The notes beneath the pieces are model-generated. The model had not been told where the DNA came from, did no database searches, and worked only from the letters and a program-made list of their open reading frames with translations. Shown here piece by piece: positions 1-18,667 of a stretch of 18,760 nt of DNA; position 1 is the first letter of the stretch, and every line of letters begins with the position of its first letter. This DNA is from a virus (taxonomy: Duplodnaviria; Heunggongvirae; Uroviricota; Caudoviricetes), in the IMG/VR virus record IMGVR_UViG_2563366883_000018; one strand, written 5' to 3'. The position numbers and the translations under genes were made by a program.

Positions 1-1284
1 TTACAGACTTCTGGAAGGTTGCGCAGCTCTTACAACACGCGGTTGATCTTCCGCAGCGTCTTCCAGTGCACTTAAATCACGGTCTTTCACTTCTGGCATT
101 TTCAGCGCAGAGATTAAACCAATCACTGAATATGCCATGATCATAATGGCGATTGGATACCAGGATTCCGTCATGGTGCAGAAAATACCTGCCAGGATAG
201 GACCAAAACCGGAAGCGATAAGACCACCAATTTCTTTTGAAATAGCCATCCGGGTAAAGCGGTTTTTACAGCCGAACATTTCTGCCATGGTAATGTTTTC
301 CAGAGCAAATAATCCCAGCACCGCACAGTTATGAATCACAATCAGTGCAACCATAATGGTGCTCGGGGCATAGCTTTTATCTACGATGATAGAAAGCATT
401 GGCCATGCCAGCACAATCGCGGAGGTATTCATAATAATATACGGGATCCGGCGACCAATTTTATCGGATAACCAACCAAGGAACGGAATGGTCATAAAGC
501 CGAGAATCGAACTGATCATCAATGCATCTGTTGGAATTGCTTTGTTAAACAATAACGTCTGTACTAAATAGCCTGCAAGGAAAGTCTGAATTAACCCGGA
601 GTTACCTGCCTGACCAAAACGCAGTCCTGTTGCCAGCCAGAAGGATTTGCTCTGGAACATGCTACCAGCAGGTGCAAGTTTTGCTGTCGGTTGGTTGCTG
701 TCGTTAACCTTCTCAAAGACCGGGCTTTCTTTCAGATTCATACGTAACCAGATAGCAAAGACCATCACGACAACGCTCGCCAGGAACGGTATACGCCATC
801 CCCACGCCAGCAGTTCCTCTTTACTGAGAATGAAGAACATAAAGGCCCAGATTGCCGTTGCGCTCAAGGTTCCGCAGTTAGTTCCCATAGCTACAAATGA
901 GGAGATAATTCCGCGCTTACCTTTTGGCGCATATTCCGCCAGCATCGTACCGGCACCGGAAATTTCCGCACCTGCACCCAACCCCTGAATAATACGCAGC
1001 GTCACCAGCAAGATGGGGGCAAAAACACCAATCTGTGCATAGGTCGGTAACACACCAATTAAGGTGGTACAGATCCCCATCATGGTGATGGTAATAAAGA
1101 GCACTTTTTTACGCCCTATTCTGTCGCCCATTTTGCCGAAAATAAATGCTCCGACAATACGCGCCACATAACCTGCACCGTAGGTTCCCATTGCCAAAAT
1201 TAACGCCATTGCCGTTGATGATTCAGGAAAAAATATTTCATGAAACACTAACGCTGCGCCGAGCGAATATAACTGGAAATCCAT
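1..1284 (-). CDS. ydfJ: MFS-family transporter (KgtP/ProP/ShiA-like), 427 aa; appears to lack the region before and including TM1, with an in-frame stop two codons upstream of the first Met
   Basis: ORF track 1..1284(-); ATG at 1284-1282, TAA at 3-1; translation has multiple hydrophobic spans and a GRK/GRR-type loop motif (DRIGRKK, DKIGRR) typical of MFS transporters; N-terminus aligns by recollection to about residue 35 of KgtP. Confidence 0.85.
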   Translation of the reverse strand: MDFQLYSLGAALVFHEIFFPESSTAMALILAMGTYGAGYVARIVGAFIFGKMGDRIGRKKVLFITITMMGICTTLIGVLPTYAQIGVFAPILLVTLRIIQGLGAGAEISGAGTMLAEYAPKGKRGIISSFVAMGTNCGTLSATAIWAFMFFILSKEELLAWGWRIPFLASVVVMVFAIWLRMNLKESPVFEKVNDSNQPTAKLAPAGSMFQSKSFWLATGLRFGQAGNSGLIQTFLAGYLVQTLLFNKAIPTDALMISSILGFMTIPFLGWLSDKIGRRIPYIIMNTSAIVLAWPMLSIIVDKSYAPSTIMVALIVIHNCAVLGLFALENITMAEMFGCKNRFTRMAISKEIGGLIASGFGPILAGIFCTMTESWYPIAIMIMAYSVIGLISALKMPEVKDRDLSALEDAAEDQPRVVRAAQPSRSL

Positions 1285-2069
1285 AATTCACAGGTGTTTT
1301 TTCCCATCCTGTGGTTTCCTTGGCGTTTTCTAGGTTTTTTCAGATAGTTGCATTTTTTAAAAAGCATCCTAAGTTCGATCTCAGTGTCTATCTGGGGCCT
1401 ATTTCTGTCCCATATATGCCCCAAAAAAACTCCCCAACAGATAAGTAGTTTTTTCATGGATTTATGCGTAAAATCAAGAACGGCTGGAAATCATTCAATA
1501 CTCACACTATCGAAAAATTTACCAGCCAACCGCAGCACGTTCTTGCATAAGGCGTGTCTGCGGTTTTTCAACTATTCAGATACATCACTCCCATCACATT
1601 CATTCCTCCGCATCAAAGGCATATAGGCTATATCACCTTGATATTTTTCTTCTTCAGATAAAAACTGTTATCTATGTATACTTTTAAACCCAATCCGTGT
1701 AGAGTCTCTGCATAAGATAGTTTGCAGTTGCCGCTTCAGCTTGCGCCATAAACCGCCTGATTTTTGCTGCCACCTGTTAGCATTCCTGTATACCTGAAAC
1801 GACAATGTTTATCTACGAACTTTAAGAACACCCAAGATAAAAATTGTCAACTATATCATATATAACACATTACTAATTCGAGGCTATATGAACAGCATAC
1901 TGATAATCACTTCTCTCCTTATCATGTTCAGCATTTTTAGTCATGCCCTAATAAAATTAGGGATTGGCATATCCAATAACCCAGACAAAACCGATGTATA
2001 AGCCAACATATCCTGAATCAGACATACAATATCGCAATGAAAATCAATAATATTTTAAGGAATATCTTC

Positions 2070-2303
2070 ATGAAATCAAAAGACACCCTAAAGTGGTTCC
2101 CTGCGCAGCTTCCTGAAGTAAGAATTATCCTAGGGGATGCTGTAGTGGAAGTAGCAAAACAGGGAAGACCTATCAATACCAGAACATTGCTTGATTACAT
2201 TGAAGGAAACATAAAGAAAAAATCATGGCTGGATAACAAAGAATTATTACAAACAGCGATATCAGTTCTTAAAGACAACCAAAATTTAAATGGTAAAATG
2301 TAA
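2070..2303 (+). CDS. ydfK: Small prophage protein, 77 aa (cold-shock-associated YdfK/YnaE family)
   Basis: ORF track 2037..2303(+); internal ATG at 2070 is preceded by AAGGAA (2056-2061) and gives the 77-aa length I recall for YdfK; the 2037 ATG has no SD. Confidence 0.75.
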   Translation: MKSKDTLKWFPAQLPEVRIILGDAVVEVAKQGRPINTRTLLDYIEGNIKKKSWLDNKELLQTAISVLKDNQNLNGKM

Positions 2304-2532
2304 TATAATAAACTTACTTTTTTATCATTTTTCCACTTTAACAACATTTTGCTCCACTTTTCCACGACCAAACAACTTGAAATCTGGTTAAAATAACACG
2401 CAACACTATTCTTCTTCCTTGAGTCCGCCCGGAACTCGAAAAACAAACCGAGTTAAAGCCATTTTTCACAAAATCGATTTTGGGTCTCACCAAAATTACG
2501 GGGTTGCATACGCATTCGTTTATTTTCGAACG

Positions 2533-2552
2533 TGTACATACAAATATGTACA
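2533..2552. promoter_or_regulatory. Perfect 8-bp-arm palindrome TGTACATA-CAAA-TATGTACA about 70 bp upstream of pinQ; candidate operator or protein-binding site
   Basis: Read directly from sequence; function not established. Confidence 0.3.
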
Positions 2553-2619
2553 AAAATAATCAAAATTATTTTCTGAGATGCATTATGATATGAACACCAA
2601 TTTCGTATAGAATCTCACT

Positions 2620-3210
2620 ATGTCTCGAATTTTTGCTTACTGTCGGATATCAACGCTGGATCAGACCACCGAAAATCAACGCCGGGAAATCGAAAGTGCA
2701 GGTTTTAAAATCAAACCTCAGCAAATAATCGAAGAACACATTAGCGGCTCAGCAGCAACCAGTGAGCGTCCTGGTTTTAACCGGTTGCTTGCTCGCCTGA
2801 AATGTGGTGATCAATTGATTGTGACAAAACTGGATCGCCTTGGTTGTAATGCAATGGATATCAGGAAAACAGTGGAACAACTGACCGAAACAGGTATCAG
2901 AGTGCATTGCTTAGCATTGGGGGGCATTGACCTGACCAGTCCAACAGGAAAAATGATGATGCAAGTAATTTCAGCAGTCGCTGAATTTGAACGAGACCTT
3001 TTACTTGAACGCACTCATTCCGGGATAGTAAGAGCCCGCGGCGCAGGGAAACGTTTTGGTCGACCACCTGTGTTAAATGAAGAACAGAAACAGGTGGTAT
3101 TCGAACGAATTAAGTCAGGTGTAAGTATAAGTGCCATTGCCCGGGAATTCAAAACCTCGCGGCAAACCATTTTAAGAGCCAAAGCAAAACTTCAGACACC
3201 TGACATATAA
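2620..3210 (+). CDS. pinQ: Serine recombinase (resolvase/invertase family, PinQ/PinR-like), 196 aa
   Basis: ORF track 2620..3210(+); N-terminal YCRISTLDQ motif with catalytic Ser10, C-terminal HTH region; strong recalled similarity to K-12 PinQ/PinR. Confidence 0.93.
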
Positions 3211-3307
3211 AAAATAATCTCGGTGTGAGATGCTTTACGTCTTCCAAGCCCCCTTCCTTGCCGTAAATGGAAAGATACATCTAATTATAGAATTTATATG
3301 TTTTACC

Positions 3308-3883
3308 CTACGGCAGTGCTGGCCATTCAATATCCTGTGCAGTTGACGTATCAACACGGTTCAGCAATACCCGATACTTTTTCCATGCTTCCAGCAACGA
3401 GATTTCTTCCTCCGTTGCAATTTCCAGATCTGCAGCATCCTGAAGCGGCGCAATATGCTCACTGGCTACCTGCATCAGGTTGTTTTTTGTTTCTTCCGCC
3501 TCCCGGATCCGGAACAGTTTTTCTGCTTCCGTATCCTTCACCCAGGCTGTGCCGTTCCACTTCTGAAACTCCCCTTCCGGGGATAACCAGGTGACATTTT
3601 CCGGTAATGGGCCAAGTTCAGAAATAAATAACGCGTCGCCGGAAGCCACGTCATAGACGGTTTTACCCCGATGATCTTCAACGAGATGCCACGATGCCTC
3701 ATCACTGTTGAAAACAGCCACGAAGCCAGCCGGAATATCTGGCGGTGCAATATAGGAACTGTTTGCTGGCAGACCTGTATGAGGCGGAATATATGCGTCA
3801 CCTTCACCAATAAATTCATTAGTTCCTGCCAGCAGATTATAAATTTTTATGGTCCGTGGTTGTTCACTCATTCTGAATGCCAT
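3308..3883 (-). CDS. tfaQ: Tail fibre assembly protein (Tfa family), 191 aa
   Basis: ORF track 3308..3883(-); ATG at 3883-3881 overlaps the stf stop by 1 nt (TAATG), indicating translational coupling; lambda Tfa-like sequence. Confidence 0.9.
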
Positions 3884-6798
3884 TATGCAAGCCTCACAAT
3901 GTAGTTAAATGCGATGTTTTTGACAGTGTTTTCCGCGTTACCAGCAGCGTTAACGGTGATGGTGTGTCCATGTGAGCCAATCGCAACAGAGTGCGTATGA
4001 GCACCAATACCGACAGTATGTGCGTGAGCACCTGCAGATGCAGCTGTGCCGCTGACACTATGAGTGTGCGCTCCTGCAGCACTTGTATTCACACTGGCCG
4101 CAGACACTACCTTATGTACTGACCCATTTTGTGACCACTGGCTGACTGCTGATGCGCCTGTGACACTATGAGTATGGTTTCCGGCACTTGCGGCTGTACC
4201 GCTCACACTGTGCGTATGCGCCCCGGTGTTATTCGTGGATTTAGTGCCGTAATCAAACGACGATGTGGTTTTCGTCCCCAAATCCGTACTGGATGCACTG
4301 GCGCTGTGGGTGTGCGATTTAATGCCGTCCTGTTCCTGAGATAATACGGCCCGACCACTGGCAGGTTTGCCCTTAATCGTCCAGCCACGCATATCAGGGA
4401 TCACGCCTGACGGATAAGCGGTTGCAAGTTTCGGGTAAGCGGATTTGTCAAAAGTCTGCCCCTGCATCAGGGCATAACCAGACGGAACGGTATCTGATGG
4501 CCACGGGATTGGTGCGCCAGGCGGATAAAACTGCTCTGATGGCGTATAGAGTGAATAAACTGTACCGTCCGTTAACCCTTCCGGCTTATTAGCAGAATAT
4601 GCTGGTGACGTATGAATAGTCACGCTGGCATTACTGGTATAATCCCATTGAATATTTACACCAGTCGCATAATTTCCGATTGCAACGTAAATATCGTAAG
4701 TATCACCAGATGTATTGACCCAGGCAAAATTTGTAAACCCTGTCGATGTGCGCTGCCATAAAGCACCAGTAATCCCCTTCGGATTACCATTACCTGCACG
4801 CAAAACAAGTTCAGATATACCTGCCTGTTGAGGTGACCCCACGTTAAATCCCGCGCCACCAATCAACGTAATTGAAACAACAGAACTCGCCTGTGGCATG
4901 GTTACCGTTGCTAATTTGAACCAACCAGCACCACCGCTGAAGGACATTGTTGTTGAGTTAAGCGTACCAATATCTTTCGGCGTCAGTGTTATATCCGCTG
5001 AAAGCGCCTTACCATTCACCTTACGGGCAGAAGGTACCCGACCATTCGCATTATCATTAGCTGCTTTCACTGCTTTCGGTGTCGCGGCAAGCGTTTCAGA
5101 TGCGCTGTTGGTTGCACTACTGAGCTGGACAATTCCTTTTTGTGCTGTCGTAGCGTCCTGAGCAGTATATTTCCCGTTAGCAAGGTCATAGGCTGCCTTT
5201 ACCGACTTTGGCGTTGCCGCCAGCATTTCAGATGTGCTGTTGGTCGCGCTGCTGAGCTGAACTATCCCTTTCTGTGCTGTCGTTGCATCCTGTGCGGTGT
5301 ATTTCCCGTTAGCCAGCTCATACGCGGCCTTAACGGCTTTTGGCGTTGCCGCCAGTGACTCGGAAGTGCTGTTAGTCGCACTGCTGAGCTGTACTATCCC
5401 CTTTTTCGTCGTGCTCGCATCCTCAAGCGCCACGGCGGATGCAATATCCTCTGCCCGTTTTGCCGCTGTCTCGGCGCGCGTTGCCGCGGATTCCGCCGTA
5501 CTTTTGCTCTGAGCTGCCGCCGTCGCACTGCCAGCTGCCTCTGTCGCCTTCGTGGATGCCGTCGTGGCGCTGCCCTTTGCTGCTGACGCCTGTCTGGTCG
5601 CCTCATCTTTTGAAGCAGACGCAGATGATGCCGATGACGCCGCCGAACTGGCGGACGATGCGGCAGCCGTTTTTGAGGATTCTGCGCTGGTTTCCGACGC
5701 TTTCGCGTTCGTCTCGGATGTCTTCGCTGCGGAAGCAGACCTCGCTGCTGCGCTGGCCTGTTCAGTGGCTTCGCCAGCCTTCGTTGTGGCTGTTGAAGCG
5801 GACGATGCGGCGCTTTCTGCCGATTTTCCGGCAGCGGTGGCACTGGCTGAGGCCTGCCCGGCACTTGTTGACGCGGCACTGGCAGACGACGCAGCCGCTG
5901 TTTTTGAGCCTGCCGCAGCTGAGGCGCTCTGTCCCGCTGCCGTCTCAGAAGACCTGGCGTTCGTCTCGGACGTTTTTGCCGCCTTCGCGGAATTTGCTGC
6001 CGCCGTTGCCGAGGAAGCTGCGCTACTGGCGCTCGAGGATGCGTTCGTTTCTGATGATTTTGCCGCCTCTTTTGAAGCCGACGCATCCCGGGCTGAGGTG
6101 GCAGCTTCTGACGCTTTCGTAGTCGCGGTGGATGCAGAAGTGGCGGCTGATTGTTGTGACGCTGCAGCATTCGTTTCTGACGTTTTCGCGGCAGCGGCAC
6201 TGGTAGCTGCCGCGCTTTTTGAGGACTCTGCAGCGGCAGCACTTTTTTCCGCTTCAGTGGCCTTTGTTGATGCCGTTCCTGCGCTGGAAGACGCTGACTG
6301 AGCCGACGAAGCGGCCTGTCCGGCTGACGTGCTGGCTGCACGTGCTGAATCTGCAGCATCAGTCGCATGGGTTGCCGCCTCACGGGCAGATGTGCCGGCA
6401 TCACTGGCTGACTTCTTCGCGGCTGCCGTGTTCTGTGCCACCACGGACGCGTTACGCGCCACCTCTTCCACCATCTGTTCAAAACGGCGCAGTGCCTCCG
6501 GACGGGCATCATCCTCCGTCATGGCACCGAGAAAATCATTCAGCGTACCGGGTTGAGAATCTTCATACACGGTGATGGTCCCGGCATGTGACGGCGGGAA
6601 TCCTTCCACCAACAGAATAACGCTGTACTGCCCGTACTCAACGTCCATGCTGTAACGCCCGGCTTCATCCGGATTTTCTGAGGCCAGCGTGTTCACCACC
6701 ACCGTGGTGCTGTTACGTTTTGCTTTCAGCTGGATTGTGCAGTTCTGTACCGGTTTTCCTGTGCCATCTTTCAGTACACCTGAAATCTTTACTGCCAT
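3883..6798 (-). CDS. stfQ: Side tail fibre protein, full length (about 971 aa from ATG at 6798): lambda-Stf-like N-terminus, long Ala/Ser/Thr-rich central region, three tandem fibre repeats, His-rich HTHS C-terminal domain
   Basis: ORF track 3883..6804(-) begins with GTG; the ATG two codons in gives [26 protein letters not shown] (lambda Stf N-terminus as recalled) and is preceded by GGGGTGA; C-terminus ...[39 protein letters not shown] matches the lambda Stf C-terminus. Confidence 0.9.
5040..5410. repeat. Three tandem copies of a repeat of about 129 bp inside stfQ, encoding ...[44 protein letters not shown] (third copy degenerate)
   Basis: Visible in the protein (three near-identical 43-aa units) and in DNA (e.g. 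5091-5210 versus 5221-5340); boundaries approximate. Confidence 0.8.
5420..6470. repeat. GC-rich low-complexity region of stfQ encoding the Ala/Ser/Thr-rich segment; source of several spurious long alternative-frame ORFs
   Basis: Protein shows reiterated [18 protein letters not shown] motifs; DNA is dominated by GCNGC triplets; boundaries approximate. Confidence 0.7.
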
Positions 6799-6814
6799 AT
6801 TCACCCCACAAAAA

Positions 6815-6836
6815 AGCCCGCCTGAACCGGCGGGCT
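6815..6836 (-). terminator. Rho-independent terminator on the minus strand downstream of the lom fragment: 7-bp GC stem (6816-6822 with 6829-6835), then a T-run on the minus strand
   Basis: Minus strand reads ACAGCCCGCCGGTTCAGGCGGGCTTTTTTGTGG; the T-run overlaps the stf ribosome-binding region. Confidence 0.6.
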
Positions 6837-6862
6837 GTCATAACACTGTGTTACCTGGCTAA

Positions 6863-7300
6863 TCAGAACTTATAACCGACACCCACGATGAAACCGTCAG
6901 TGCGCCAGTCGCCACTGCCGGAGCCTTCATAAGCAATATCAATGGCCACGGATTCGGTCGGGTTAAACTGCACGCCAGCTCCCCACGCCAGAGACGTGTT
7001 GCTGTGGCGACCGTCATCACTTCCGGTCAGCACGTCGTGCGTTTTCCCCTTGTTGTCAGTTACGCGGAGATAATCCCCGGAGAAAGTCGACACACGGCTG
7101 TAAGCCATACCCGCCATCGCATACGCGCTGAACCATTCATTCACGCGCACAGACGGCCCCACCATCACGCTGAACCAGCGGTTACGCACGGAATCTTCAT
7201 GCCAGCGGGTATCGCTGTAACGGGTAAGCTGGCGATTCTTGTCTCCTGCATAGCTGCCGGACCCTCCATCCAGAATGACGCAATACGTGAACGCCGGGGA
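6863..7300 (-). pseudogene. lom: C-terminal fragment of a Lom/Ail/PagC-family outer-membrane beta-barrel protein; N-terminal part and signal peptide absent
   Basis: ORF track 6863..7189(-); frame stays open upstream to a stop at 7301-7303; translation ...[22 protein letters not shown]...AYEGSGSGDWRTDGFIVGVGYKF matches lambda Lom from about residue 85 to its C-terminal F. Confidence 0.75.
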
Positions 7301-8259
7301 TCACCATAACGACTGCCATCTGCATTGATGGATTCACCATCCCGTAACCAGACCCCACGTCCGTTCAGCTCGCGTTTTTGTTCAGGCAAAATCCGTCCTG
7401 AACAGGAAGGACACTGAATATAAGCCGCCTCACTTGCCAGCACAGGATCGGCAATATCACGGAAACCAGCAACCACATCGCCGCAGGGCTGAAAATACTC
7501 ACCACAGTGTGGACAGGGCCAGTACCAGCGACGGCGATCGCCACGGTTATAGAGCGACAGGATCCCCGTGGTTGGTGGAGCCTCATGCGGTGAAGTCCGT
7601 CGCCATTTCACATCCTTCACATCCCTGCCGGGGGAACTCTCCACCAGCGTCATACCACTGGACATAAATGTGGTGGTACGTTTTGAGGCAAGAGAGAAGG
7701 CATCCCCCTCACCATCAATATCTTCCGGAAAACGGTCATAATCCGTCAGCGCCACGCATTTATAATCTGATGAAGACATGATATTGACTGACGGCCAGCC
7801 GATTTTCAGGTAGTTGCCAGCAAGGAATGTTCTGTCATAAACGTTGTTGTCATTTTTGTTCGGACTCAGGCGACTGACCACTTCCGGGCTGACGCGAAAC
7901 GTTCTGGCGAGTCGTTTTTTGGAGTGTTCGCGGGCTTTTTCCTCCGTCATCTGAATGATCAGCATATCAGCAGGATCGCAAATCACGTTGTAAATCACCC
8001 AGCCGTCAATCAGGCCGATAGTCTTGCCGGTTCGTGCCGGGCCAACAAATATCACTGCGTCGTATTCACGCGAGGCCAGGCAGTTCATAGGCTCAATAAC
8101 ATACGGTGCCACCAGCGGATCCCACGGGACTGAGTTCCCTGCCCCCATAGGCACCCGCATATACTGAGCAACGGCATCAGCAACCCGCATTCGTCTCGGT
8201 GCGCGAAGGATATAACCTGAATCGGTTCGTGCTGCCTTTGCGGTTTCCTGATTCAGCAT
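7165..8259 (-). pseudogene. N-terminal fragment of a GpA-family large terminase subunit; the last ~40 codons of the ORF are out-of-frame lom sequence
   Basis: ORF track 7165..8259(-), 364 aa; P-loop GPARTGKT and CPHCGE zinc-finger-like motif as in lambda gpA; lambda gpA is about 641 aa, so the C-terminal half is missing; ATG at 8259 overlaps the nohA stop (TAATG). Confidence 0.8.
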
Positions 8260-8753
8260 TACTCCTCCTGCTGTAATTCCTCCTCATCATCCGCACCTGC
8301 TTCAGTCACCCGCAGGGCTATCTGATCGCGCAGATCATCAATAATGGACTGAACACGGCTCACAGCGGCAGGCTGCAGACCGCAGTCACGTTCAAGAATA
8401 TCCGGTAATGTCTCCAGCACCTGCACGACCGCTTTTGCCCAGATGGCAAACTCCCGTCTGACATCACTGGCCGGAATGAGTTGTGCCGTTTCCTGTTCGA
8501 ACTTAAGACGCTCACGTTCAGACTGATACCAGGCTTTGCGCTCATGCGCGTCCATTTCGCCTTCTGCAACCGGCGGTGGTAATGCCAGAAATGCCGACAC
8601 AATATCAACCACCCGATAAAGCTTGAGGTTGCTTTCATGCCCCCCTGCAACGGGTAGATTTTGCAGCCTTGCCGCAGCAGTCTGGCGATGTACACCTGAC
8701 AATGCCGCCAGTTGACTGATATTCAGCGTCAGATTTTTTAACTCTCGATCCAT
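8259..8753 (-). CDS. nohA: Terminase small subunit (Nu1-like), 164 aa, with N-terminal HTH
   Basis: ORF track 8259..8753(-); N-terminal HTH-like [24 protein letters not shown], acidic C-terminus; position immediately downstream of a cos-like site and upstream of the large terminase; the gene symbol rests on position and on a recalled NohA/NohQ identity. Confidence 0.8.
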
Positions 8754-8899
8754 ACCCGCTCCAGAATGTTTTAAACATGTATCTTGCGAACAACTTTAGG
8801 CAAACGGTGTTAGTGATGAACAAAAAACAATCAGAATCGACACCATAAAAATAAAACCACTGTAATATCAATCAATTACAGTAGTGGTGATGACGAATA

Positions 8900-8968
8900 A
8901 AATTTCAAAAACTAGCCTTTTTCCGCGACGCTCCCGCCCCGTGGCAGGGGCCCCCACCGGGAGGACCC
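8900..8968 (-). other. cos site of the lambdoid prophage (cosQ-cosN-like segment, with cosB presumed between it and nohA)
   Basis: Minus strand reads GGGTCCTCCCGGTG-15 nt-GGGGCGGGAGCGTCGCGG...TTTTTGAAATTTTATTCGTCAT, paralleling the lambda cos junction GGGTCCTTTCCGGTG-15 nt-GGGCGGCGACCTCGCGGG...TGAAAATTTTCC...TTCGTCAT as I recall it. Confidence 0.5.
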
Positions 8969-8992
8969 GACAGCCTGACAGCCTGACAGCCG
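8969..8992. repeat. Three tandem copies of an 8-bp unit GACAGCCT (last copy GACAGCCG) next to the cos-like element
   Basis: Read directly from sequence. Confidence 0.8.
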
Positions 8993-9127
8993 TGATGAGC
9001 ATCTGATACAGCGCTTTACATAATGGCATAGGAATAATTCAGAAGGACATCACAGCATGCCCACACAAATTAGTGTGAGTGTCCTGTTTCTTCCTACGCA
9101 CAGGACTGACGAGCATGAGGGGAAAAT

Positions 9128-9295
9128 ATGCGAACCATAAATGCCTCATCTTCAGCAATGCAACCGGCATCCGAACAGGACGATATTGTAAATTCACCTA
9201 ATTACGAGGACATTGCAGTAGTTGAATTGCAGCTCTGTATTAGCCTGACAGTGACAGAATGCGATATTGACTCTGTCACAGGTGAAATAGTTTGA
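9128..9295 (+). CDS. Hypothetical acidic small protein, 55 aa (below the ORF-track threshold)
   Basis: ATG at 9128 preceded by GAGGGG (9117-9122) with 5-nt spacing; TGA at 9293-9295; no recognisable domain. Confidence 0.3.
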   Translation: MRTINASSSAMQPASEQDDIVNSPNYEDIAVVELQLCISLTVTECDIDSVTGEIV

Positions 9296-9315
9296 ATGAT
9301 TAGCAGTTATGGTGC

Positions 9316-9522
9316 TCAGTCAACCACCAGGGAATAATCCTTCGAATTCTTATCGTGCTTCACCAACGCTGCCTCAATTGCCCTGAATGCTTCCAGAGAC
9401 ACCTGATGTTCTATACATGCAATTACAACATCCGGGTAACTCATAGAAATGGTGCTATTAAGCATATTTTTTACACGAATCAGATCCAACGAGAGTTCAT
9501 CAGCAGATTGTTCTTTATTCAT
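9316..9522 (-). CDS. Hypothetical prophage protein, 68 aa
   Basis: ORF track 9316..9522(-); ATG start with upstream GGAG at 7-nt spacing; lies between nohA and ydfO, where K-12 Qin has ynfO, but I cannot confirm identity. Confidence 0.45.
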
Positions 9523-9822
9523 TTTGTCGCTCCATGCGTTTGCTCGTCATCTAGCGGTTAAAATATTACTTCAAATCTTACTGCATAAAAGAGGAAAAGT
9601 ATGAAAGTTTGAGTACATCGACCTTACATACATCTGTCGGTTGCATATCCCTCCTGGATGCCAGCAAGGCTCAATTTTGTTACGCAATCAACACTATTCA
9701 TTAAAAACAGGCTTAATATTTGACATAAATCATCAACAAAACACAAAGAGGTCAGACCAGATTGAAACAATAAACACGATAATGCTAACTACGCGCCATC
9801 GTATCACATGGAAGGTTTACCA

Positions 9823-10254
9823 ATGGCTCAGGCTGCCATTTTTAAAGAAATATTCGATCAAGTGCGTAAAGATTTAAACTGTGAATTATTTTATTCTGAG
9901 CTAAAACGTCACAATGTCTCACTTTATATTTACTATTTAGCCACAGATAATATTCACATTGTGTTAGAAAACGACAACATAGTGTTAGTAAAAGGACTCA
10001 AAAAGGTTGTAAATGTTAAATTCTCCAGAAACAAACATCTTATAGAGACCTCCTATAATAAGTTGTAATCAAAAGAAATCACATTTCAACAATACAGGGA
10101 AAATCTTGCTAAAGCAGGAGTTTTCCGATGGGTTACAAATATCCAGGAACACCAAAGATATTACTATGCCTTTGATAACTCATTACTATTTACTGAAAGC
10201 ATCCAGAAAATTACTGAAAGCATCCAGAAAACTACACAGATCTTACCACGCTAA
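9823..10254 (+). pseudogene. ydfO: YdfO-like (DUF1398-type) prophage gene interrupted by an in-frame TAA at 10066-10068, with an in-frame 21-bp tandem duplication near the 3' end
   Basis: ATG at 9823 preceded by GGAAGG; the frame is continuous from 9823 to TAA at 10252-10254 except for the single stop; the segment after the stop reads ...[44 protein letters not shown]..., which looks like genuine protein sequence. Confidence 0.65.
10190..10231. repeat. Perfect 21-bp tandem duplication (TTACTGAAAGCATCCAGAAAA x2), in frame within ydfO ([14 protein letters not shown])
   Basis: Read directly from sequence. Confidence 0.9.
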
Positions 10255-10405
10255 ACCATAACGTCTGGCTTCTCTCACTCCTGAGCCGGACTGCATTGGT
10301 TTAATAAAAACCATCAACAATTGTGATTTAGATATTCGGAACCATTCAAATATAACAAAACCCCGTAAAAACGAGGTTTATGGATAAATTTTATTATTGA
10401 ATACA

Positions 10406-10579
10406 TCAGATTAAATTAATCTTGACATCATAGCTTTCAAGACCCGTCATTTTTTCCCGTGCGGTAAACTGAATACTGGTAACTTCTTTCCCGGTCTTTT
10501 TCTTAAGTTCAATAATTTTTTTTGTTATATATTCAGAAATATCTGCTTCTGCTTTTGTTTTTAAGTCTTCAATATTCAT
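10406..10579 (-). CDS. gnsB: GnsA/GnsB-family small protein, 57 aa (below the ORF-track threshold)
   Basis: Manual translation of the minus strand: MNIEDLKTKAEADISEYITKKIIELKKKTGKEVTSIQFTAREKMTGLESYDVKINLI; GAGG 5 nt upstream of the ATG; length and sequence fit recalled GnsB. Confidence 0.8.
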   Translation of the reverse strand: MNIEDLKTKAEADISEYITKKIIELKKKTGKEVTSIQFTAREKMTGLESYDVKINLI

Positions 10580-10750
10580 CATTTCCTCTTTTAGTCTGTT
10601 ATGACTTTCCAGTTACACAGTAAGTCGATTATATGGTGCAAACGTGTAAAAGATAAGATGAAACATCGCAATAATCAACATACGATAGTCTAAATTTTAC
10701 ACAAACAGACAAAGAGAATTTTCCTGAATTATCAATGCAATAGCATCAAA

Positions 10751-10981
10751 TCAACTCAAGAGCCTTATTGCTGCTTCCAGAATTTCTTCTGAAGTAACAT
10801 GTCGATCCGCGGCTACATAAATGACTTTATGATCTCCGGTCAGAGATGGAAACCCTGCGGCCATTACAGTAAGGTGTGTTTTTTCGCCATTTGGATATTC
10901 ACGCATGATGGTGTTAACTCCAGTCATCGCTGGCACTACCACTGCTGGTTCAGAGTTAAAAAAAACTATGATTTTTTTCAT
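10751..10981 (-). CDS. Hypothetical prophage protein, 76 aa, immediately upstream of gnsB (possibly ynfN/YmcE-like)
   Basis: ORF track 10751..11023(-); the internal ATG at 10981 (MKKIIVFF...) gives 76 aa; identity with ynfN not confirmed. Confidence 0.5.
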   Translation of the reverse strand: MKKIIVFFNSEPAVVVPAMTGVNTIMREYPNGEKTHLTVMAAGFPSLTGDHKVIYVAADRHVTSEEILEAAIRLLS

Positions 10982-11252
10982 GATGTTACCGTAGTATGTG
11001 AGTATCCATCGAATAGACACCAAGCAAAAAAGCTCCCGAAGGAGCCTTCATTTTCACTTTTTTAAATCCAACGACAGACGGCTGGCATTTAAGTATTGTG
11101 AAATATTATCAAATGTAATCATCATTGATTTACAAAAGATACATTTTGCCCCGAAAGGATTCATGTCAGAAACATCAAAAGATGATGTTCTATACTGGGA
11201 ACCATGACAACACGGGCATCTAAAGTGAATATGGTTTGTAATATTGTCTACC

Positions 11253-11465
11253 TCAAAGCGCCACTACATGAACAGCGGCAGGACCTTTAGGTCCGTTCTC
11301 AATACCAAATTCAACTTCCTGATTCTCAGTTAATGTTTTGAAATCGTTGCTCTGAATTGCTGAGAAATGGACAAACACATCTTTGCTGCCATCTTTCGGC
11401 GTGATGAAACCAAAACCTTTTTCAGGGTTAAACCATTTCACTAAACCAGTCATTTTGTTAGACAT
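11253..11465 (-). CDS. cspI: CspA-family cold-shock protein, 70 aa
   Basis: ORF track 11253..11465(-); [13 protein letters not shown]...KGFGFI...FVHFSA cold-shock domain with RNP1/RNP2 motifs; followed on the minus strand by a long AT-rich leader (11466 to about 11650). Confidence 0.93.
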
Positions 11466-11826
11466 AATTATTACCTTTTGAAGAAATTAGCCCTTGGGCA
11501 GAATGGTCCGAAAAAAATATCAGAGAGAAAAACCAACAAGGAAATCTCAAGAGGTACAAATAATAAAATTATAACAATGACTGCTTCAGATAAATTTGTA
11601 ACAAACCAGAACACCATTAACGCATGATTAACCACCCATAGCAAGGATTACTTTTGTAAAGAAAAACACAGCAATGAAAGAATAGCTTTATTTATTAATA
11701 AAACGTGTCATTCTGATTAAGACCTTTTATCTTACCCTTAAGATTTCAGGAATTTTGGCTCATGGAAGAGTCCTTTTTATTCAAATTTTACATTCCGCGA
11801 TGTAAATGTTCCGATTTAATATTACC

Positions 11827-12850
<1,024 letters not shown>

Positions 12851-12854
<4 letters not shown>

Positions 12855-13162
12855 AGATATTTATGATGAGGACGCTCGTGCTTATTGGCAGGATTTTCAA
12901 TCTTAAAGGAGTACTGATGCTGCAGATAAGACTCAACTTTTTCTGACAATTTTTCTGCTACTTCCAGGAAGACTTGCCGGACGCTCCTTCTGGCTGCTGC
13001 CTCATAAAACTCCAGCGCAGCTCCTTCAACACGGTCCATGGCGACATCCAGGTCAAAAATTTCACCGTCAAAGCGTTCTTTGTCCTGTAAGGCTACAGTT
13101 ACCGTAACTTTATTCTCAAAATTACGGACTCCTTTCACAACCAGTTCATAGTCTTGAGTCAT
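12851..13162 (-). CDS. ydfR: Prophage protein of unknown function, 103 aa, between holin and endolysin
   Basis: ORF track 12851..13162(-); ATG start with GAGGAGAG 7 nt upstream; recalled YdfR. Confidence 0.8.
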
Positions 13163-13166
13163 TGGA

Positions 13167-13382
13167 TTACTCTCCTCTCGCAGCCTTACGCCTGTCTTCT
13201 TTAATCTTGAAATAAAGATTTGTCAGATACGTCAGCAGGCCAAAAACCAGGCTACCCAGCACACCGATTGCAGCCCACTGTGACGGAGTTACTTTATCGA
13301 GTAACTGCAATGCCCAGAAACCAGCATTACCCGCCGATGTGCCATAGGCAACACCTGTTGTTAACTTATCCATTGATTTCAT
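13167..13382 (-). CDS. essQ: Class II holin, phage-21 S-type pinholin, 71 aa, with dual-start motif MKSM
   Basis: ORF track 13167..13457(-); the internal ATG at 13382 gives [71 protein letters not shown], near-identical in pattern to recalled S21. Confidence 0.9.
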
Positions 13383-13601
13383 ATCCTCACCCCGATGTAC
13401 ACGGATGGTGCAATATGTTTGAAAAGATCGGAGTCTACGGGGTAGTTTTGACAGCACACGTTGTTCTCAACGGCGCTAAAAAAACATACACATTAAAAAT
13501 ATGGGTAATTATTTTGAAAGAAAGTCATATATAAAATAATAATACGAGAAATGTTTTCATATTTAGTGTACTGTATACGGCCATTTATACAGGAAAAGCC
13601 T

Positions 13602-13772
13602 ATGTCAGAACGTAAAAACTCAAAATCACGCCGTAATTATCTCGTTAAATGTTCCTGCCCAAACTGCACCCAAGAGTCAGAACACAGTTTTTCAAGAGTA
13701 CAAAAAGGTGCCCTTTTGATCTGCCCTCATTGCAACAAAGTATTCCAGACAAATCTTAAAGCTGTAGCCTGA
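13602..13772 (+). CDS. Small zinc-ribbon protein, 56 aa (CPNC ... CPHC)
   Basis: ORF track 13551..13772(+); the internal ATG at 13602 is preceded by AGGAAAAG; two CxxC pairs; diverges from the late operon. Confidence 0.55.
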   Translation: MSERKNSKSRRNYLVKCSCPNCTQESEHSFSRVQKGALLICPHCNKVFQTNLKAVA

Positions 13773-13825
13773 TTGATTTTATTAGTAACAAGTATTTTTT
13801 ATATTTTAATAATATATTTAAAGCA

Positions 13826-13853
13826 GATAATAAAAAACCCGCCTGAGCGGGTT
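13826..13853 (-). terminator. Rho-independent terminator hairpin (stem AACCCGC/GCGGGTT, loop CTGA) with a strong T-run on the minus strand; weaker on the plus strand
   Basis: Minus strand reads AACCCGCTCAGGCGGGTTTTTTATT; about 280 nt downstream of the cspB stop and 60 nt downstream of the zinc-ribbon ORF. Confidence 0.55.
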
Positions 13854-14135
13854 TGAGATTGTGGTGCTTTTTGTGGGAGTCATCCACTTACGCACTTTGT
13901 TTTGCCATGCCAGCAGTTAGCTTCTGCTGTAAAACTATTCAGGCAGCAAACCTGCACTTCACCACAATGGTTAGCATACTTTTCCTGATTAAGATTTTGC
14001 CAAATATGCTAGCCATTGTTTCATGTATTGGACCTCCTTACTTTTTATTAAAGAGATCCAATATTCACTACTCTGTCCGTATCTCTACTCAGGCATCAGC
14101 CTTCTTCGTTATCGTATACAGACGAGCGATGAATT

Positions 14136-14351
14136 TTAATCAGTAATGATGACATTTGCTGCTGCAGGACCTTTAGCACCACTCTCTATAGAGAAGGTAA
14201 CCTTTTGACCTTCAAATAAGGTTCGATAATTATCATTCTGAATCGCAGAAAAATGCACAAACACATCTTTACTACCATCAACAGGAGAAATAAAGCCGAA
14301 ACCTTTATCAGCGTTAAACCATTTTACTAAACCAGTCATTTTATTTGACAT
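14136..14351 (-). CDS. cspB: CspA-family cold-shock protein, 71 aa
   Basis: ORF track 14136..14351(-); [21 protein letters not shown]... cold-shock domain. Confidence 0.93.
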
Positions 14352-14651
14352 TCTACATTCCTTAACTTGAGCCTTTCGGCATAAATGGTTTGCATAACAG
14401 AAACGACTTCGTACTTAATTGGAGAGACTCAAAGAAGGAATAAGTGAATAACACCTGAAATGAGAACTGCTTTAGTAAACTACTTCGTATATCGTCTGTT
14501 CTTCAAACCGACGCAATCATTAACGCATAGTTGAACATATGAAGCAATGTTTATTTTAGACATCCAGCCATCTTCAACCCCATCAAAAAACTATAGCTTT
14601 CTTCAGGAACGTGTGTATAGTGCGCCAAGTTATCAGTATTAAGGAATTTTT

Positions 14652-14864
14652 TTGTCCCGTAAAATGACAGGAATTGTCAAAACCTTTGACGGCAAAAGCG
14701 GCAAGGGCCTTATCACCCCATCCGATGGTCGTATCGATGTCCAGCTTCATGTTTCAGCGCTCAATCTCCGCGATGCAGAAGAAATTACCACCGGATTACG
14801 CGTGGAATTTTGCCGGATAAATGGTCTGCGTGGCCCTTCAGCTGCCAATGTTTACCTTTCATGA
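14652..14864 (+). CDS. cspF: CspA-family cold-shock-like protein, 70 aa, divergent from cspB
   Basis: ORF track 14652..14864(+); apparent TTG start (MSRKMTG...); cold-shock domain with a divergent RNP region. Confidence 0.85.
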
Positions 14865-14918
14865 GCTATATTAAAGCTTTAATTTCAGGCCCCATCGGAT
14901 CACACATGGAGAGTTTTT

Positions 14919-15008
14919 ATGAATAACCCCGTCTGTCTTGATGACTGGTTGATTGGCTTTAAAAGCTTATGCTGTACTTTGGCCGTAATAGCTCTGCTAA
15001 TAATATAA
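14919..15008 (+). CDS. Candidate small hydrophobic protein, 29 aa ([29 protein letters not shown])
   Basis: ATG at 14919 preceded by GGAGAG at 5-nt spacing; hydrophobic C-terminal half; no homology known to me. Confidence 0.25.
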
Positions 15009-15156
15009 TAAGCAGACTCATTGTGTTTAGGGACATTGTACTGGAAGAAAACATTTTAAACATCAGGCAAATAACCAAGTCACCAGCTAAATAATAAGTT
15101 AACAGACATGAGTCCCGGGATGAGATTCAACATTACCATTGCCCCATTTAAAGCAC

Positions 15157-15192
15157 AAAACCCGCTCATCAGCGGGTTTTCTACTTTTTCTT
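15157..15192. terminator. Bidirectional rho-independent terminator (stem AACCCGCT/AGCGGGTT, loop CATC) between convergent cspF and quuQ; on the minus strand a candidate tR'
   Basis: Plus strand hairpin followed by TTTTCTACTTTTTC; minus strand hairpin followed by TTTTGTGCTTT. Confidence 0.6.
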
Positions 15193-15225
15193 AGCGTCGG
15201 GTATACAAAGCCCATCGTTGAAAAA

Positions 15226-15254
15226 ATTTTATCCATATTTTTTGAAAAATGCAA
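15226..15254 (-). promoter_or_regulatory. Candidate Q-dependent late promoter (pR'-like): -35 TTGCAT, 17-bp spacer, -10 TAAAAT on the minus strand
   Basis: Read from sequence; lies 32-60 nt downstream of the quuQ stop and about 40 nt upstream of the terminator hairpin. Confidence 0.4.
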
Positions 15255-15285
15255 ACATCATGTCGCCATCTTCAGCAAAAATCAT

Positions 15286-16038
15286 TTATCTCGTCACCTT
15301 CCTCAATTGCGCTTCCGCGTATGCTTCTTCCTGCCAGCACTTTGTTACCAGTTTACCAATGACGTCCGCATACCCCTTATACCACTGATAATCGGTCAGG
15401 TCTGGTACCAGCTTCTGGACATGACGTCGTGCCAGCGTGGTCGGTAAACGACTAAACCGGTTTCCATTACAACGCCCACAAATCTTATATACCGGTACGC
15501 CATGAAACCGGGTTCTTTTTTCATCCAGAACAATCCCTTTACCCTTACACCCTCTGCACGCTGTGCTGGCTTCGCCCTTACCATGGCAATGCTGACATAG
15601 TTCCTTCACCCATTCTTCCTTGATTACAGATTCCCCGCGTCTGTAGTGTTTCACCACTTCGCGCAATACATTATAAAATCCCGTACCTGAACAATGCTCA
15701 CAGCGAGCCTTACTTGCCGCAGACCTGGAGTAATCAGCAAAGGCAAAACTCACGAGGTAAGGAATAATCTGTAACCGGATTTCTTCACTCAATTTGTTCA
15801 ATGTCGGGTTATCCAGTGCCATCGCGTAATTTAGCAGGCCTTCAATCGCAAACTGAGGGTCCTGAACACCAACTTTTGCCAGAAATAAGGCCAACCCAAG
15901 TGGTGCTTTCGACTGCACCATCCCCTGCGCTGCCATTACATCCGTAATTGTTAAACAACCGGTGCCTGCCGCTGGAGCGTCATCGCTCAATTTTGGAGAT
16001 TTTGGGGAGTAATATTTTGGTAAGGCTTCAAGGTTCAT
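15286..16038 (-). CDS. quuQ: Late-gene antiterminator Q-like protein, 250 aa
   Basis: ORF track 15286..16068(-); the internal ATG at 16038 is preceded by GGAG and gives 250 aa; several CxxC pairs (CEHC, CQHC, CRGC, CGRC). Confidence 0.88.
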   Translation of the reverse strand: MNLEALPKYYSPKSPKLSDDAPAAGTGCLTITDVMAAQGMVQSKAPLGLALFLAKVGVQDPQFAIEGLLNYAMALDNPTLNKLSEEIRLQIIPYLVSFAFADYSRSAASKARCEHCSGTGFYNVLREVVKHYRRGESVIKEEWVKELCQHCHGKGEASTACRGCKGKGIVLDEKRTRFHGVPVYKICGRCNGNRFSRLPTTLARRHVQKLVPDLTDYQWYKGYADVIGKLVTKCWQEEAYAEAQLRKVTR

Positions 16039-16051
16039 GCTCGTTCTCCAC

Positions 16052-17101
16052 TTACGCCAGTACGCCAATTGCCAGCGCGCGATCGATAAAACGAAATATC
16101 AGCTCCAGTTGGGAGCCATACTTATCTTCAAATGCCACTGTATCCGTATGCAGCTCGTTGTGATGCTTTCTGCACAAAGGCAACACAAAGAGATCATGTG
16201 CTTTTGTTCCCATTCCGCCCTGCCCGTGACCAATCAGATGATGCGGATCGTCGGCTGGCATACCGCAGCAAGCACACGGCTGTGTCTTAACCCAACGTGT
16301 GTATTTCTCCTTAACCCAGCGGCGACGTTTAGGCAGCTTCATGAAAGATTCCGGAGACTCTGGATCAACGGTGATGCTTACCACCGTCTTTTCCTGTGGT
16401 GATTTTTGTTGCTGGTGGGCGTAAGGCAACGGTGCAAGATTTTTTGTGCGTTGTTTCAATATGCTGGTGGCGGTCTGCTCTCCCGGTACGATGTCGCTTT
16501 CGCGGTACACCGAGCAGATTTTTTCCGCTGGTAATCCCAGCGAACGACGCGATACAGCCTCAGGTAGTGCATCCACCACCTGATTGCAGACCGCCCACCA
16601 GGATAATTCAGCCAAAGATAATTCCCGCTCCTGCGTACCGCTTATTGCGTGACGGATGACGTCAATCACCCATGCTGTCAGATTTTGTTGAGCAAGCAGC
16701 TCCAGTGATTCCGATGTCTGGTCACGCAGTTGGTTGTCGCAGTGCCAGCACAACACCATTGCGCCGGTACCATAACGGTGAATGACTGTTTCAGTGTGAT
16801 GGTAATCGCCATTAGGCCACTGGCAGGATGTAACATGACGTAATAGCCAGTCGGACAATGCGCCAACGCCGCCAGCAGCACGAATCACCCGTTCGTTACT
16901 AAAAAACGGCAGCAATGTTTTGTCTTCCGCCAGCGGCTGGCGAACGGCAGGAACGACTCCGGATGGCAGATTACGCATGCTTTTTGGTTCCGGTTCCACC
17001 AGCACTCGAGGATTATGAAATATCTGTATGGATTCACGGCCCGGCTTAAGGACCACCAGCCCAAGCTCAGGCACCAGAACAGGTCTAAGTAATACCCGCA
17101 C
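16052..17101 (-). CDS. ydfU: DUF968-family prophage protein, 349 aa, with C-terminal Cys/His HNH-like motif
   Basis: ORF track 16052..17140(-); the GTG at 17101 gives the 349-aa length I recall for YdfU and sits 1 nt after the upstream ORF's stop; C-terminus CACCG...HHLIGHGQGGMGTKAHDLFVLPLCRKHHNELH. Confidence 0.8.
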   Translation of the reverse strand: MRVLLRPVLVPELGLVVLKPGRESIQIFHNPRVLVEPEPKSMRNLPSGVVPAVRQPLAEDKTLLPFFSNERVIRAAGGVGALSDWLLRHVTSCQWPNGDYHHTETVIHRYGTGAMVLCWHCDNQLRDQTSESLELLAQQNLTAWVIDVIRHAISGTQERELSLAELSWWAVCNQVVDALPEAVSRRSLGLPAEKICSVYRESDIVPGEQTATSILKQRTKNLAPLPYAHQQQKSPQEKTVVSITVDPESPESFMKLPKRRRWVKEKYTRWVKTQPCACCGMPADDPHHLIGHGQGGMGTKAHDLFVLPLCRKHHNELHTDTVAFEDKYGSQLELIFRFIDRALAIGVLA

Positions 17102-17102
17102 G

Positions 17103-17381
17103 TTACCTCCAGATCCGTTGCTGGAAAGTGCGGGACGCACGTGGTGGGCGTTCGGAATAAGGCAGCCTGACAGAGATTATCCAGTGCCGATAGTCGAGAC
17201 TGAGAGCTTTCTTAACCTCGAACCCGCGCCTGCGGTAAGAATGAATCAGCCATTCGGCCTGTTCTGCAGTGCATGGAGGGTGCTGGAACCATTCAGACTT
17301 GAATGCGTGAGAATACCGCCCGTGCGTGCAGGCAAGAACGGGCGAATTATCAGAATTGTAATATTTTGCGTTGCGTGCCAT
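17103..17381 (-). CDS. Hypothetical prophage protein, 92 aa
   Basis: ORF track 17103..17381(-); ATG start with GGAG 8 nt upstream; stop abuts the ydfU start. Confidence 0.6.
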   Translation of the reverse strand: MARNAKYYNSDNSPVLACTHGRYSHAFKSEWFQHPPCTAEQAEWLIHSYRRRGFEVKKALSLDYRHWIISVRLPYSERPPRASRTFQQRIWR

Positions 17382-17447
17382 CGGTTTTCTCCGGTGGCAC
17401 GGTGTTACTCAGCGGGAGTTCAGCCCCGCGCAAGATTGTAGATGAGT

Positions 17448-17699
17448 TTATTCTCCTGAAAAAGCAGAAAAGCCAGCTTTTATTCCGATCTCTTTCAATG
17501 CCTGTAATGAAGTGACAAACTCACCTTCGCGCAAGATAAATCCGTCCGTGACCCGAGCATCCACAAAATTAATTAACGCAGCCCCATTCTTTCGCAAACA
17601 CATAATGCGGTAATGACTAACAAGATTTCCATTTTCAACGCACACAGCATAGAGGCCATCTTCACAAAAAATTTTACGCAGTTCTTCGATGTTCATCAT
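17448..17699 (-). CDS. Hypothetical prophage protein, 83 aa (position and length fit K-12 rem, sequence identity not verified)
   Basis: ORF track 17448..17699(-); begins MMNIEEL... Confidence 0.6.
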   Translation of the reverse strand: MMNIEELRKIFCEDGLYAVCVENGNLVSHYRIMCLRKNGAALINFVDARVTDGFILREGEFVTSLQALKEIGIKAGFSAFSGE

Positions 17700-17814
17700 C
17701 AGAATCCTTCCGGATAATTAGCTCTCCCCTTTAAGGGACCATCCCTCTTATCCCTGCGCGCTACTTAAGTATTTTTGATTCTATTCCGGCACCGTCCAGA
17801 ACTTCAAACGCGTT

Positions 17815-17847
17815 GAAAATAAAAACAAAAACCCGCCGAAGCGGGTT
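17815..17847 (-). terminator. Rho-independent terminator of the relB-relE-hokD operon (stem AACCCGC/GCGGGTT, loop CGAA, then a long T-run on the minus strand)
   Basis: Minus strand reads AACCCGCTTCGGCGGGTTTTTGTTTTTATTTT, about 70 nt downstream of the hokD stop. Confidence 0.65.
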
Positions 17848-17915
17848 AAGTGCGGGTGCGTTGAGGATGCCTGCCACATCAGAGGTGGCGAGGGATTTCT
17901 CCCCCGCCGGGTCTC

Positions 17916-18071
17916 TTACTCCTCAGGTTCGTAAGCTGTGAAGACAGCGACCTCCGTCTGGCCGGTTCGGATTCGTACCTCGCAGAGGTCTTTCCTCGTT
18001 ACCAGTGCCGTCACTATGACGGTTAAACAGATGACGATCAGGGCGATTAACATCGCCTTTTGCTGCTTCAT
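17916..18071 (-). CDS. hokD: Hok-family type I toxin, 51 aa (below the ORF-track threshold)
   Basis: Manual translation of the minus strand: MKQQKAMLIALIVICLTVIVTALVTRKDLCEVRIRTGQTEVAVFTAYEPEE. Confidence 0.9.
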   Translation of the reverse strand: MKQQKAMLIALIVICLTVIVTALVTRKDLCEVRIRTGQTEVAVFTAYEPEE

Positions 18072-18142
18072 AGCCTGCTTCTCCTGTCAACGCAAAGCAG
18101 AAGTGTCACCTTCGGTGCGAAACAGAGATGTCATGCTTTGGT

Positions 18143-18430
18143 TCAGAGAATGCGTTTGACCGCCTCGCTATATACTTCCGAGCGTTCTCTTTTCCCAACA
18201 GAAATCACGAAAACGACAACTTTCTCGTCTATAACCTGGTATACAAGGCGATAGCCTGAAGACCGGAGCTTAATCTTGTAACAATCAGGCATACCACGGA
18301 GCTTGTTTGCTTCAATCCGGGGTGACTCAAGTACTTCAACCAGCTTCTTTTTCAACTGTTCACGTACCGTCGAGCCCAGCTTTCGTCATTCCTTTAGTGC
18401 CCGCTCGTCAAAATCCAGAAAATACGCCAT
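18143..18430 (-). pseudogene. relE: relE mRNA-interferase toxin gene with an in-frame TGA at codon 15
   Basis: Minus strand from ATG 18430: MAYFLDFDERALKE-TGA-RKLGSTVREQLKKKLVEVLESPRIEANKLRGMPDCYKIKLRSSGYRLVYQVIDEKVVVFVISVGKRERSEVYSEAVKRIL; the stop occupies 18388-18386 where recalled K-12 RelE has Trp; the ORF-track 70-aa ORF is only the part after an internal TTG. Confidence 0.85.
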
Positions 18431-18666: not shown

Positions 18667-18667
18667 C

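Follow-up and report, generated by a model that had tools for sequence, protein, structure and literature searches.

The window analysed here is the whole 18,760-nt stretch of DNA of the Caudoviricetes record IMGVR_UViG_2563366883_000018, and its subject is stf, a gene for a side tail fibre. Our best overall explanation, to which we assign a probability of about 0.9, is that the window holds the right-arm end of a lambdoid prophage (lom'-stf-tfa-pin-ydfK) located at ydfJ, the site of the Qin prophage of Escherichia coli K-12, and that a deletion of 17,094 bp left a standard lambda-type Stf stranded but coding. Judged from its sequence, stf is, together with the gene of its assembly chaperone, tfa, an ordinary and already catalogued lambda-type side tail fibre gene, and it is intact. 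An earlier note on this DNA, made from the letters alone, had described a full-length stf with intact tfa and pin in an otherwise gutted prophage. The feature is real and was correctly read; it is also ordinary and already known, as an annotated protein in a familiar arrangement. We found no evidence contradicting the identification of stf. The coordinates of all features are collected in Table 1.

The stf open reading frame (ORF) occupies 3883-6804 on the minus strand and contains no internal stop codon. It has 973 codons when counted from a GTG at 6804 and 971 when counted from the ATG at 6798, the latter being the uninterrupted frame described in the earlier note. The ATG is preceded at 5 nt by a Shine-Dalgarno-like GGGGTGA, and it is also the start chosen by the Prokaryotic Genome Annotation Pipeline (PGAP) for the identical protein in NZ_CP030768.1. 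At the other end of the gene, the stop codon TAA and the ATG of tfa overlap in GCA-TAATG-GCA, with one base in common (position 3883), in keeping with the translational coupling of the two genes that had been proposed. The predicted protein is 100% identical over 971 aa to RefSeq WP_000279113.1, annotated as 'prophage tail fiber N-terminal domain-containing protein'. Other long ORFs overlap the Ala/Ser-rich part of the gene in other frames or on the opposite strand (5394-6512, minus, 372 aa; 5439-6122, plus, 227 aa; 5552-6301, plus, 249 aa). They are most likely artefacts of the GC-rich, repetitive codon composition of this part, and lambda has the same layout, with orf206b annotated opposite orf-401.

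The domain composition is that of a lambda-type Stf. In the domain search that had been proposed as a check, Pfam recovered phage_tail_N, Phage_fiber_2 three times, Collar and a short His-containing Phage_fiber repeat. The full phage_tail_N profile (PF08400) covers aa 3-136 of the GTG-start ORF, that is, aa 1-134 from the ATG (E 7.5e-72), and aa 1-94 match the collar domain of lambda Stf solved in the Ur-lambda tail tip structure (9E7M/9MGH; E 4e-52); the lambda-like N-terminus of the earlier description is thus well founded. The shaft that follows is composed of 38% Ala and 25% Ser, and its DNA has a GC content of 0.61-0.63, a strong AT skew and short internal repeats. The three tandem fibre repeats, likewise noticed before, appear in the protein as three stretches of Phage_fiber_2 (PF03406; E 8.7e-52) and in the DNA as a family of three 132-nt copies, two of them 77% and 62% identical to the reference copy (Tandem Repeats Finder, TRF: period 132). 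This region also matches the Mu tail fibre S (5YVQ/8JU3). Pfam assigned no family to the distal shaft module (aa 594-750), which has PHROG matches (3299/21552/6722) and resembles fibres of phages that differ widely in genome size: identity is 80-87% with those of the ~100-108-kb phages JL22, CMS-2020a and Cyrano, the 45-kb phi458 and Yersinia phages of 37-49 kb, and 58-62% with those of ST64B and the ~110-120-kb phages 3sent1 and Kenya-K18. The position of the gene fits as well, with a lom fragment, stf and tfa in the window and the full J-lom-stf-tfa order in the undeleted relative described below.

The C-terminal part resembles the collar, needle and head of T4 gp37. Residues 744-971 match the gp37 receptor-binding tip (2XGF; E 2.9e-88), with 68% identity over the last ~228 aa. 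The His-rich C-terminal domain of the earlier note corresponds to seven HxH motifs (aa 829, 861, 875, 911, 925, 934 and 943), none of which varies when the tip is aligned with StfQ, StfR, lambda Stf and T4 gp37. In T4, gp37 is part of the long fibre of a contractile tail and has gp57A and gp38 as chaperones. Its head in 2XGF, which we take to be the receptor-contacting part, differs from that of the window Stf in its residues. The only strongly divergent stretch of the tip alignment lies between the third and fourth HxH motifs, where ~35-55 residues cannot be aligned, and it coincides with a gap in DNA similarity to K-12 at window positions 4052-4180. By homology with gp37, this stretch would be the head that contacts the receptor (PMC12617516). 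The isolated phages 2H10 and PhiR29_1/2 and Salmonella phage SPF_0923 carry exactly the same 130-aa tip, and the 167-kb phage vB_EcoM_G2285 has a version that is 91% identical; the tip module is circulating in active phages.

WP_000279113.1 is encoded at the same ydfJ site of another strain, E. coli 2017C-4173W12 (NZ_CP030768.1), in a lambdoid prophage that looks complete. Unlike the window, this prophage has full-length lom, J, all tail genes, a fusion of ClpP protease and capsid, the portal and both terminase genes. BLAST aligned the window with this genome at 99.38% identity in two blocks (1-7256 and 7252-18085) that are separated there by 17 kb. Within the prophage DNA from ydfJ to the deletion junction (1285-7256), only 8 differences separate the two, while the flanking ydfJ fragment (1-1284) has 37, or 2.9%. 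That the prophages are far more alike than the adjoining chromosomes suggests recent horizontal spread or recombination. In stf, five nucleotide differences were found, all of them synonymous. At least 25 complete E. coli genomes among those listed carry the stf-tfa-lom segment at 99.8% identity, and 130 records have a best match of at least 99% to it. The suggestion that the locus might hold a more ancestral or recombinant allele is borne out on both counts. A complete prophage in the same chromosomal position encodes an identical protein, and relative to StfR and the Stf of 2H10 the window Stf forms a three-part mosaic, with 95-97% identity over aa 1-494, a different module at aa 495-752 and 97% identity to 2H10 over aa 753-971.

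Between the presumed small terminase gene and stf, the window contains only a 5' fragment of the terminase large subunit gene fused to a 3' fragment of lom; the head and tail genes are gone, and the prophage is indeed as gutted as had been described. The fusion creates an ORF of 364 aa (7165-8259), in which the terminase frame continues out of frame into lom and stops at 7165. A three-way alignment placed the missing 17,094 bp between the middle of the terminase large subunit gene and the middle of lom of NZ_CP030768.1, with whose full-length lom the window is colinear up to position 7256. The terminase and lom sides both carry AGCTG at the junction, and the segment would have been lost through illegitimate recombination at this 5-bp microhomology. 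Other internal deletions affect the same ydfJ prophage: from nohA to mid-stf in K-12, from the protease gene to mid-stf in APEC O78, from the terminase to J and again from stf to tfa in ZH177, and from the terminase to lom in MB06233, which retains an stf of 1092 aa. With at least four other deletions, differing in their end points, independent deletion events are the usual way in which the ydfJ locus decays, and the survival of stf depends on where these end points fall. The deletion in the window may be recent, given only 8 differences over 1285-7256, and the intactness of stf then needs no special explanation.

The window belongs to a Qin-type cryptic prophage: it is integrated at ydfJ, ends in ynfT-ydfK-pin-tfa and contains the cspI/cspB/cspF, lysis, Q, hokD and relBE modules. 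The window shares 98.7% identity with the Qin region of K-12 over positions 1-4051 and 9745-18667; for positions 4532-9745, no counterpart was found there. The two prophages have the ydfJ site, the flanks, tfa and pin in common; the K-12 gene nohA and the stretch coding for the N-terminus of stfQ are missing from the window, and the deletion end points differ, since nohA meets mid-stf in K-12 and the terminase large subunit gene meets lom in the window. The earlier note described K-12 stfQ as much shorter, and this was accurate. In the stfQ-tfaQ-pinQ cluster (b1545-b1547), stfQ has 963 nt and encodes 320 aa; its alignment with the GTG-start ORF is confined to aa 752-973 (750-971 counted from the ATG), at 78% identity. 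StfQ lacks the attachment domain, the shaft and the repeats, and it has another head segment, longer by 16 aa. By this comparison, K-12 StfQ is a remnant. The locus is of modest value, which lies in showing this and in showing that internal deletions have arisen independently in the decaying ydfJ prophage family, some of them leaving the fibre cassette untouched.

The Rac prophage of K-12 (lomR-stfR-tfaR-pinR-ynaE, b1372-b1375) has the same gene order and orientation, and likewise keeps a full-length fibre gene in a defective prophage. StfR is 97% identical to the window Stf over aa 1-494 and 84% over the last 220 aa. It is longer (1120 aa), with one fibre repeat (no Phage_fiber_2 in Pfam) and a middle part containing Gp34_trimer, whereas the window Stf has three repeats, a different distal shaft module, another head segment and another chromosomal site. 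With its protein already in RefSeq and the same full-length cassette kept in Rac, the locus is not unusual. In Ur-lambda, Stf and Tfa (orf-401 + orf-314, orf-194) share with the window cassette the overall architecture, the collar/needle tip and the one-base stop/start overlap, and the N-terminal domains are ~93% identical. Lambda Stf is shorter, with a single Phage_fiber_2 hit, extra insertions in the tip and a different head, and no pin gene follows tfa in lambda. Escherichia phage 2H10 (NC_049950.1), an isolated lambdoid phage, has the same order J-lom-stf-tfa-invertase; the stf-tfa-invertase order is normal for this phage family. Its Stf, of 1117 aa with a StfR-type middle module, is identical to that of the window over the 130 aa of the tip and 95% identical over aa 1-494.

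Comparison with Ur-lambda also indicates how the fibre would work. The N-terminal domain would form a dodecameric collar anchoring four trimers at the tail tip, where residues 1-94 of Ur-lambda Stf have this collar role (PMC12617516). The Ur-lambda trimers reach the cell before the central fibre, speed adsorption and bind OmpC (PMC12617516); because of the insertions in the lambda tip and its different head, OmpC binding is not transferable to the window Stf. The seven HxH motifs would coordinate metal ions, the short variable head would bind an outer-membrane receptor, and Tfa, whose start overlaps the stf stop, would act as the folding chaperone. What the sequence shows directly is that the gene is whole, which domains it resembles, that its allele matches that of an intact prophage, and that the deletion exists; trimerisation, metal binding, receptor binding, expression and the donor capacity discussed next are inferred. 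In the absence of J, tail and head genes, the fibre is unusable by this element and therefore has no autonomous function. The cassette is stranded yet coding, still co-oriented with the Q-dependent late genes.

The earlier note also saw in the cassette a potential donor for host-range switching, and this role is plausible. Three arms of homology to lambda, with identities of 87% over 1101 bp (5' end of stf and lom), 86% over 286 bp (collar) and 93% over 715 bp (tfa and 3' end of stf), flank the variable middle and the head. With homology on both sides of the variable parts, an infecting lambdoid phage could pick up the cassette by homologous recombination. In experiments published in 2014, stf-tfa DNA of the K-12 prophages Qin and Rac passed markers to lambda at ~2e-6, mainly via Red-beta (PMC3945230). 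That stf-tfa cassettes are reservoirs for tail fibre exchange with lambdoid phages is an established concept, to which we add nothing new; with these homology arms and a tip identical to that of isolated phages, the cassette of the window could serve as one of them.

Three points limit the reach of our explanation. First, stf is immediately preceded by a strong terminator-like hairpin, and transcription would therefore need Q-type antitermination or read-through. Second, the head segment is unlike those of lambda, T4, StfR and StfQ, and the receptor is not assignable from it. Comparing C-terminal domains to deduce the receptor, as had been proposed, gave the identical tips in 2H10, PhiR29_1/2 and SPF_0923, but a literature search on these phages returned nothing relevant on their receptor. 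Third, the intactness of stf says little about selection, as positions 1285-7256 are nearly identical to the intact relative.

The third point bears directly on the reading that stf-tfa, perhaps with pin, has been retained for the benefit of the host, either by masking receptors against superinfecting phages or by supplying fibres in trans to other lambdoid virions. We consider this very unlikely. Receptor masking by free fibre has been reported for the e14 chimera StfE2 after inversion driven by PinQ/PinR; these recombinases are reported to be active and to act in trans on the e14 P segment, whose inversion lowers T2 adsorption and confers resistance to T2 (2025 paper, PMC12529663). The Pin of the window is 100% identical to PinR. 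However, the reported defence works via e14 genes, not via the stf of Qin or Rac, and this trans role of PinQ/PinR does not involve the adjacent stf; the window contains neither an e14-type crossover site nor an invertible segment. The exclusively synonymous differences in stf (5/5, P ~0.001 under neutrality) would favour selection, but they may date from a time when both alleles were in functional phages. The ~93% identity of the N-terminal domain to that of lambda makes attachment to a lambda-like tail conceivable. On the other side, the independent deletion derivatives of K-12, APEC O78 and ZH177 truncate or destroy stf, and retention is therefore not consistent across strains. Selection as the explanation for the retention of the cassette was rejected as unsupported, given these truncations and the near identity of the window to the intact prophage. 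A more elaborate form, in which the cassette is kept for a host or community function, with expression from what is left of the Q-dependent late operon arming Stf-less lambdoid virions in trans, or with occupation of a surface receptor excluding competing phages in concert with the adjacent active PinQ/PinR-type recombinase, seems to us decidedly improbable.

The deletion itself might be an assembly artefact, with a complete prophage behind it and stf serving a functional phage as its fibre gene. In favour of this reading, none of 5,426 complete E. coli genomes contains the junction, its exact 42-nt pattern is absent from the GTDB species representatives, and the undeleted version is common. 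Nevertheless, the sequences that meet at the junction are unique and share a clean 5-bp microhomology, with no repeat on which an assembly could collapse, and several strains have different internal deletions of the same module, which makes such decay usual here. We therefore regard an artefact as highly improbable and retain the deletion of a lambdoid prophage.

We give next to no credence to a host-range switch of the Gin/Cin/Pin type, in which pin would invert and swap the C-terminal part of the fibre: an invertase-type serine recombinase does adjoin tfa, in a layout typical of Mu, P1 and e14, but there is a single stf 3' end and a single tfa instead of alternative fibre C-termini and tfa genes between two inverted crossover sites, and Pin is just 39% identical to PinE. 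An inverted-repeat search of 2400-7300 found no pair longer than 14 nt bracketing a fibre segment, the pairs found being 72-94% complementary and chance-like. The invertase core AAACCNNGGTTT is no commoner than in shuffled sequence and never occurs within 2000-8500, and neither the e14 P-segment crossover sequence nor its extended version has a match within 3 mismatches. A fibre switch was rejected for want of an invertible segment, an enriched core motif and the e14 crossover sequence. Hence, of the intact tfa and pin reported before, both stand as full ORFs, and pin implies no switch of the fibre.

Table 1. Coordinates of the features of the window, with strand and evidence
Feature	Position	Strand	Evidence
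pin, serine recombinase, 196 aa	2620..3210	+	Resolvase + HTH_7; convergent with tfa
tfa, tail fibre assembly chaperone, 191 aa	3308..3883	-	PF02413 (Caudo_TAP), E 3.7e-43
stf, side tail fibre gene	3883..6798	-	ORF list, Pfam, identity to WP_000279113.1
gp37-like collar, needle and head, putative receptor-binding tip, aa 751-971	3886..4548	-	2XGF match, seven HxH
Hypervariable head segment, aa 878-910, between third and fourth HxH	4069..4167	-	Alignment, K-12 DNA gap
Distal shaft module, aa 594-750	4549..5019	-	Not in StfR or 2H10 Stf; phage fibre matches
Three tandem Phage_fiber_2 repeats, 132 nt / 44 aa each	5042..5437	-	DNA repeat search, TRF, Pfam
Ala/Ser/Thr-rich shaft, aa 137-455	5434..6390	-	Composition, StfR identity, repeats
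N-terminal tail-attachment domain, aa 1-136	6391..6798	-	PF08400 + lambda Stf structure match
Terminator-like hairpin	6815..6836	-	8 pairs, 7 G-C, then T run; between lom and stf
lom 3' fragment (Ail/Lom family), truncated at junction	6863..7256	-	PF06316, profile positions 92-199
Deletion junction, 5-bp microhomology AGCTG	7252..7256		Terminase side and lom side both carry AGCTG
Terminase large subunit 5' fragment	7257..8259	-	GpA_ATPase, E 3.7e-72
DUF1441 gene, presumed small terminase subunit (by position)	8259..8753	-	PF07278; upstream of terminase fragment

Among the neighbouring genes, tfa, which follows stf directly, encodes a Caudo_TAP protein that shares 98% identity with TfaQ and TfaR and 94% with lambda Tfa. 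Its codons 43-44 (window 3754 and 3757) specify Ser-Tyr, where TfaQ, TfaR, lambda Tfa and the allele of the intact prophage have Thr-Asp; this is a natural variant, present in 32 complete E. coli records that include APEC O78 and several Shiga toxin-producing E. coli (STEC) strains. Pin, besides its identity to PinR, is 99% identical to PinQ and falls in PHROG 125 (DNA invertase); the e14 homologue mentioned above, PinE, aligns with it at the R-x-S-T motif, and Pin has both the catalytic domain and the C-terminal helix-turn-helix (HTH) expected of this family. The DUF1441 gene also occurs in related prophages (WP_000373425.1).

At the far end of the window, a mosaic boundary was observed in the early region. 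Beyond position 18085, NZ_CP030768.1 departs from the window, which tracks K-12 (relE-relB), while 2017C-4173W12 has a DUF4209 gene there. The relE gene (18143-18430, minus strand) has a premature stop at codon 15 (18386-18388; W15* relative to K-12 RelE) and is otherwise identical, and the relB ORF beside it (18430-18681) looks intact. The RelE toxin of this prophage-borne pair is thus probably inactivated.

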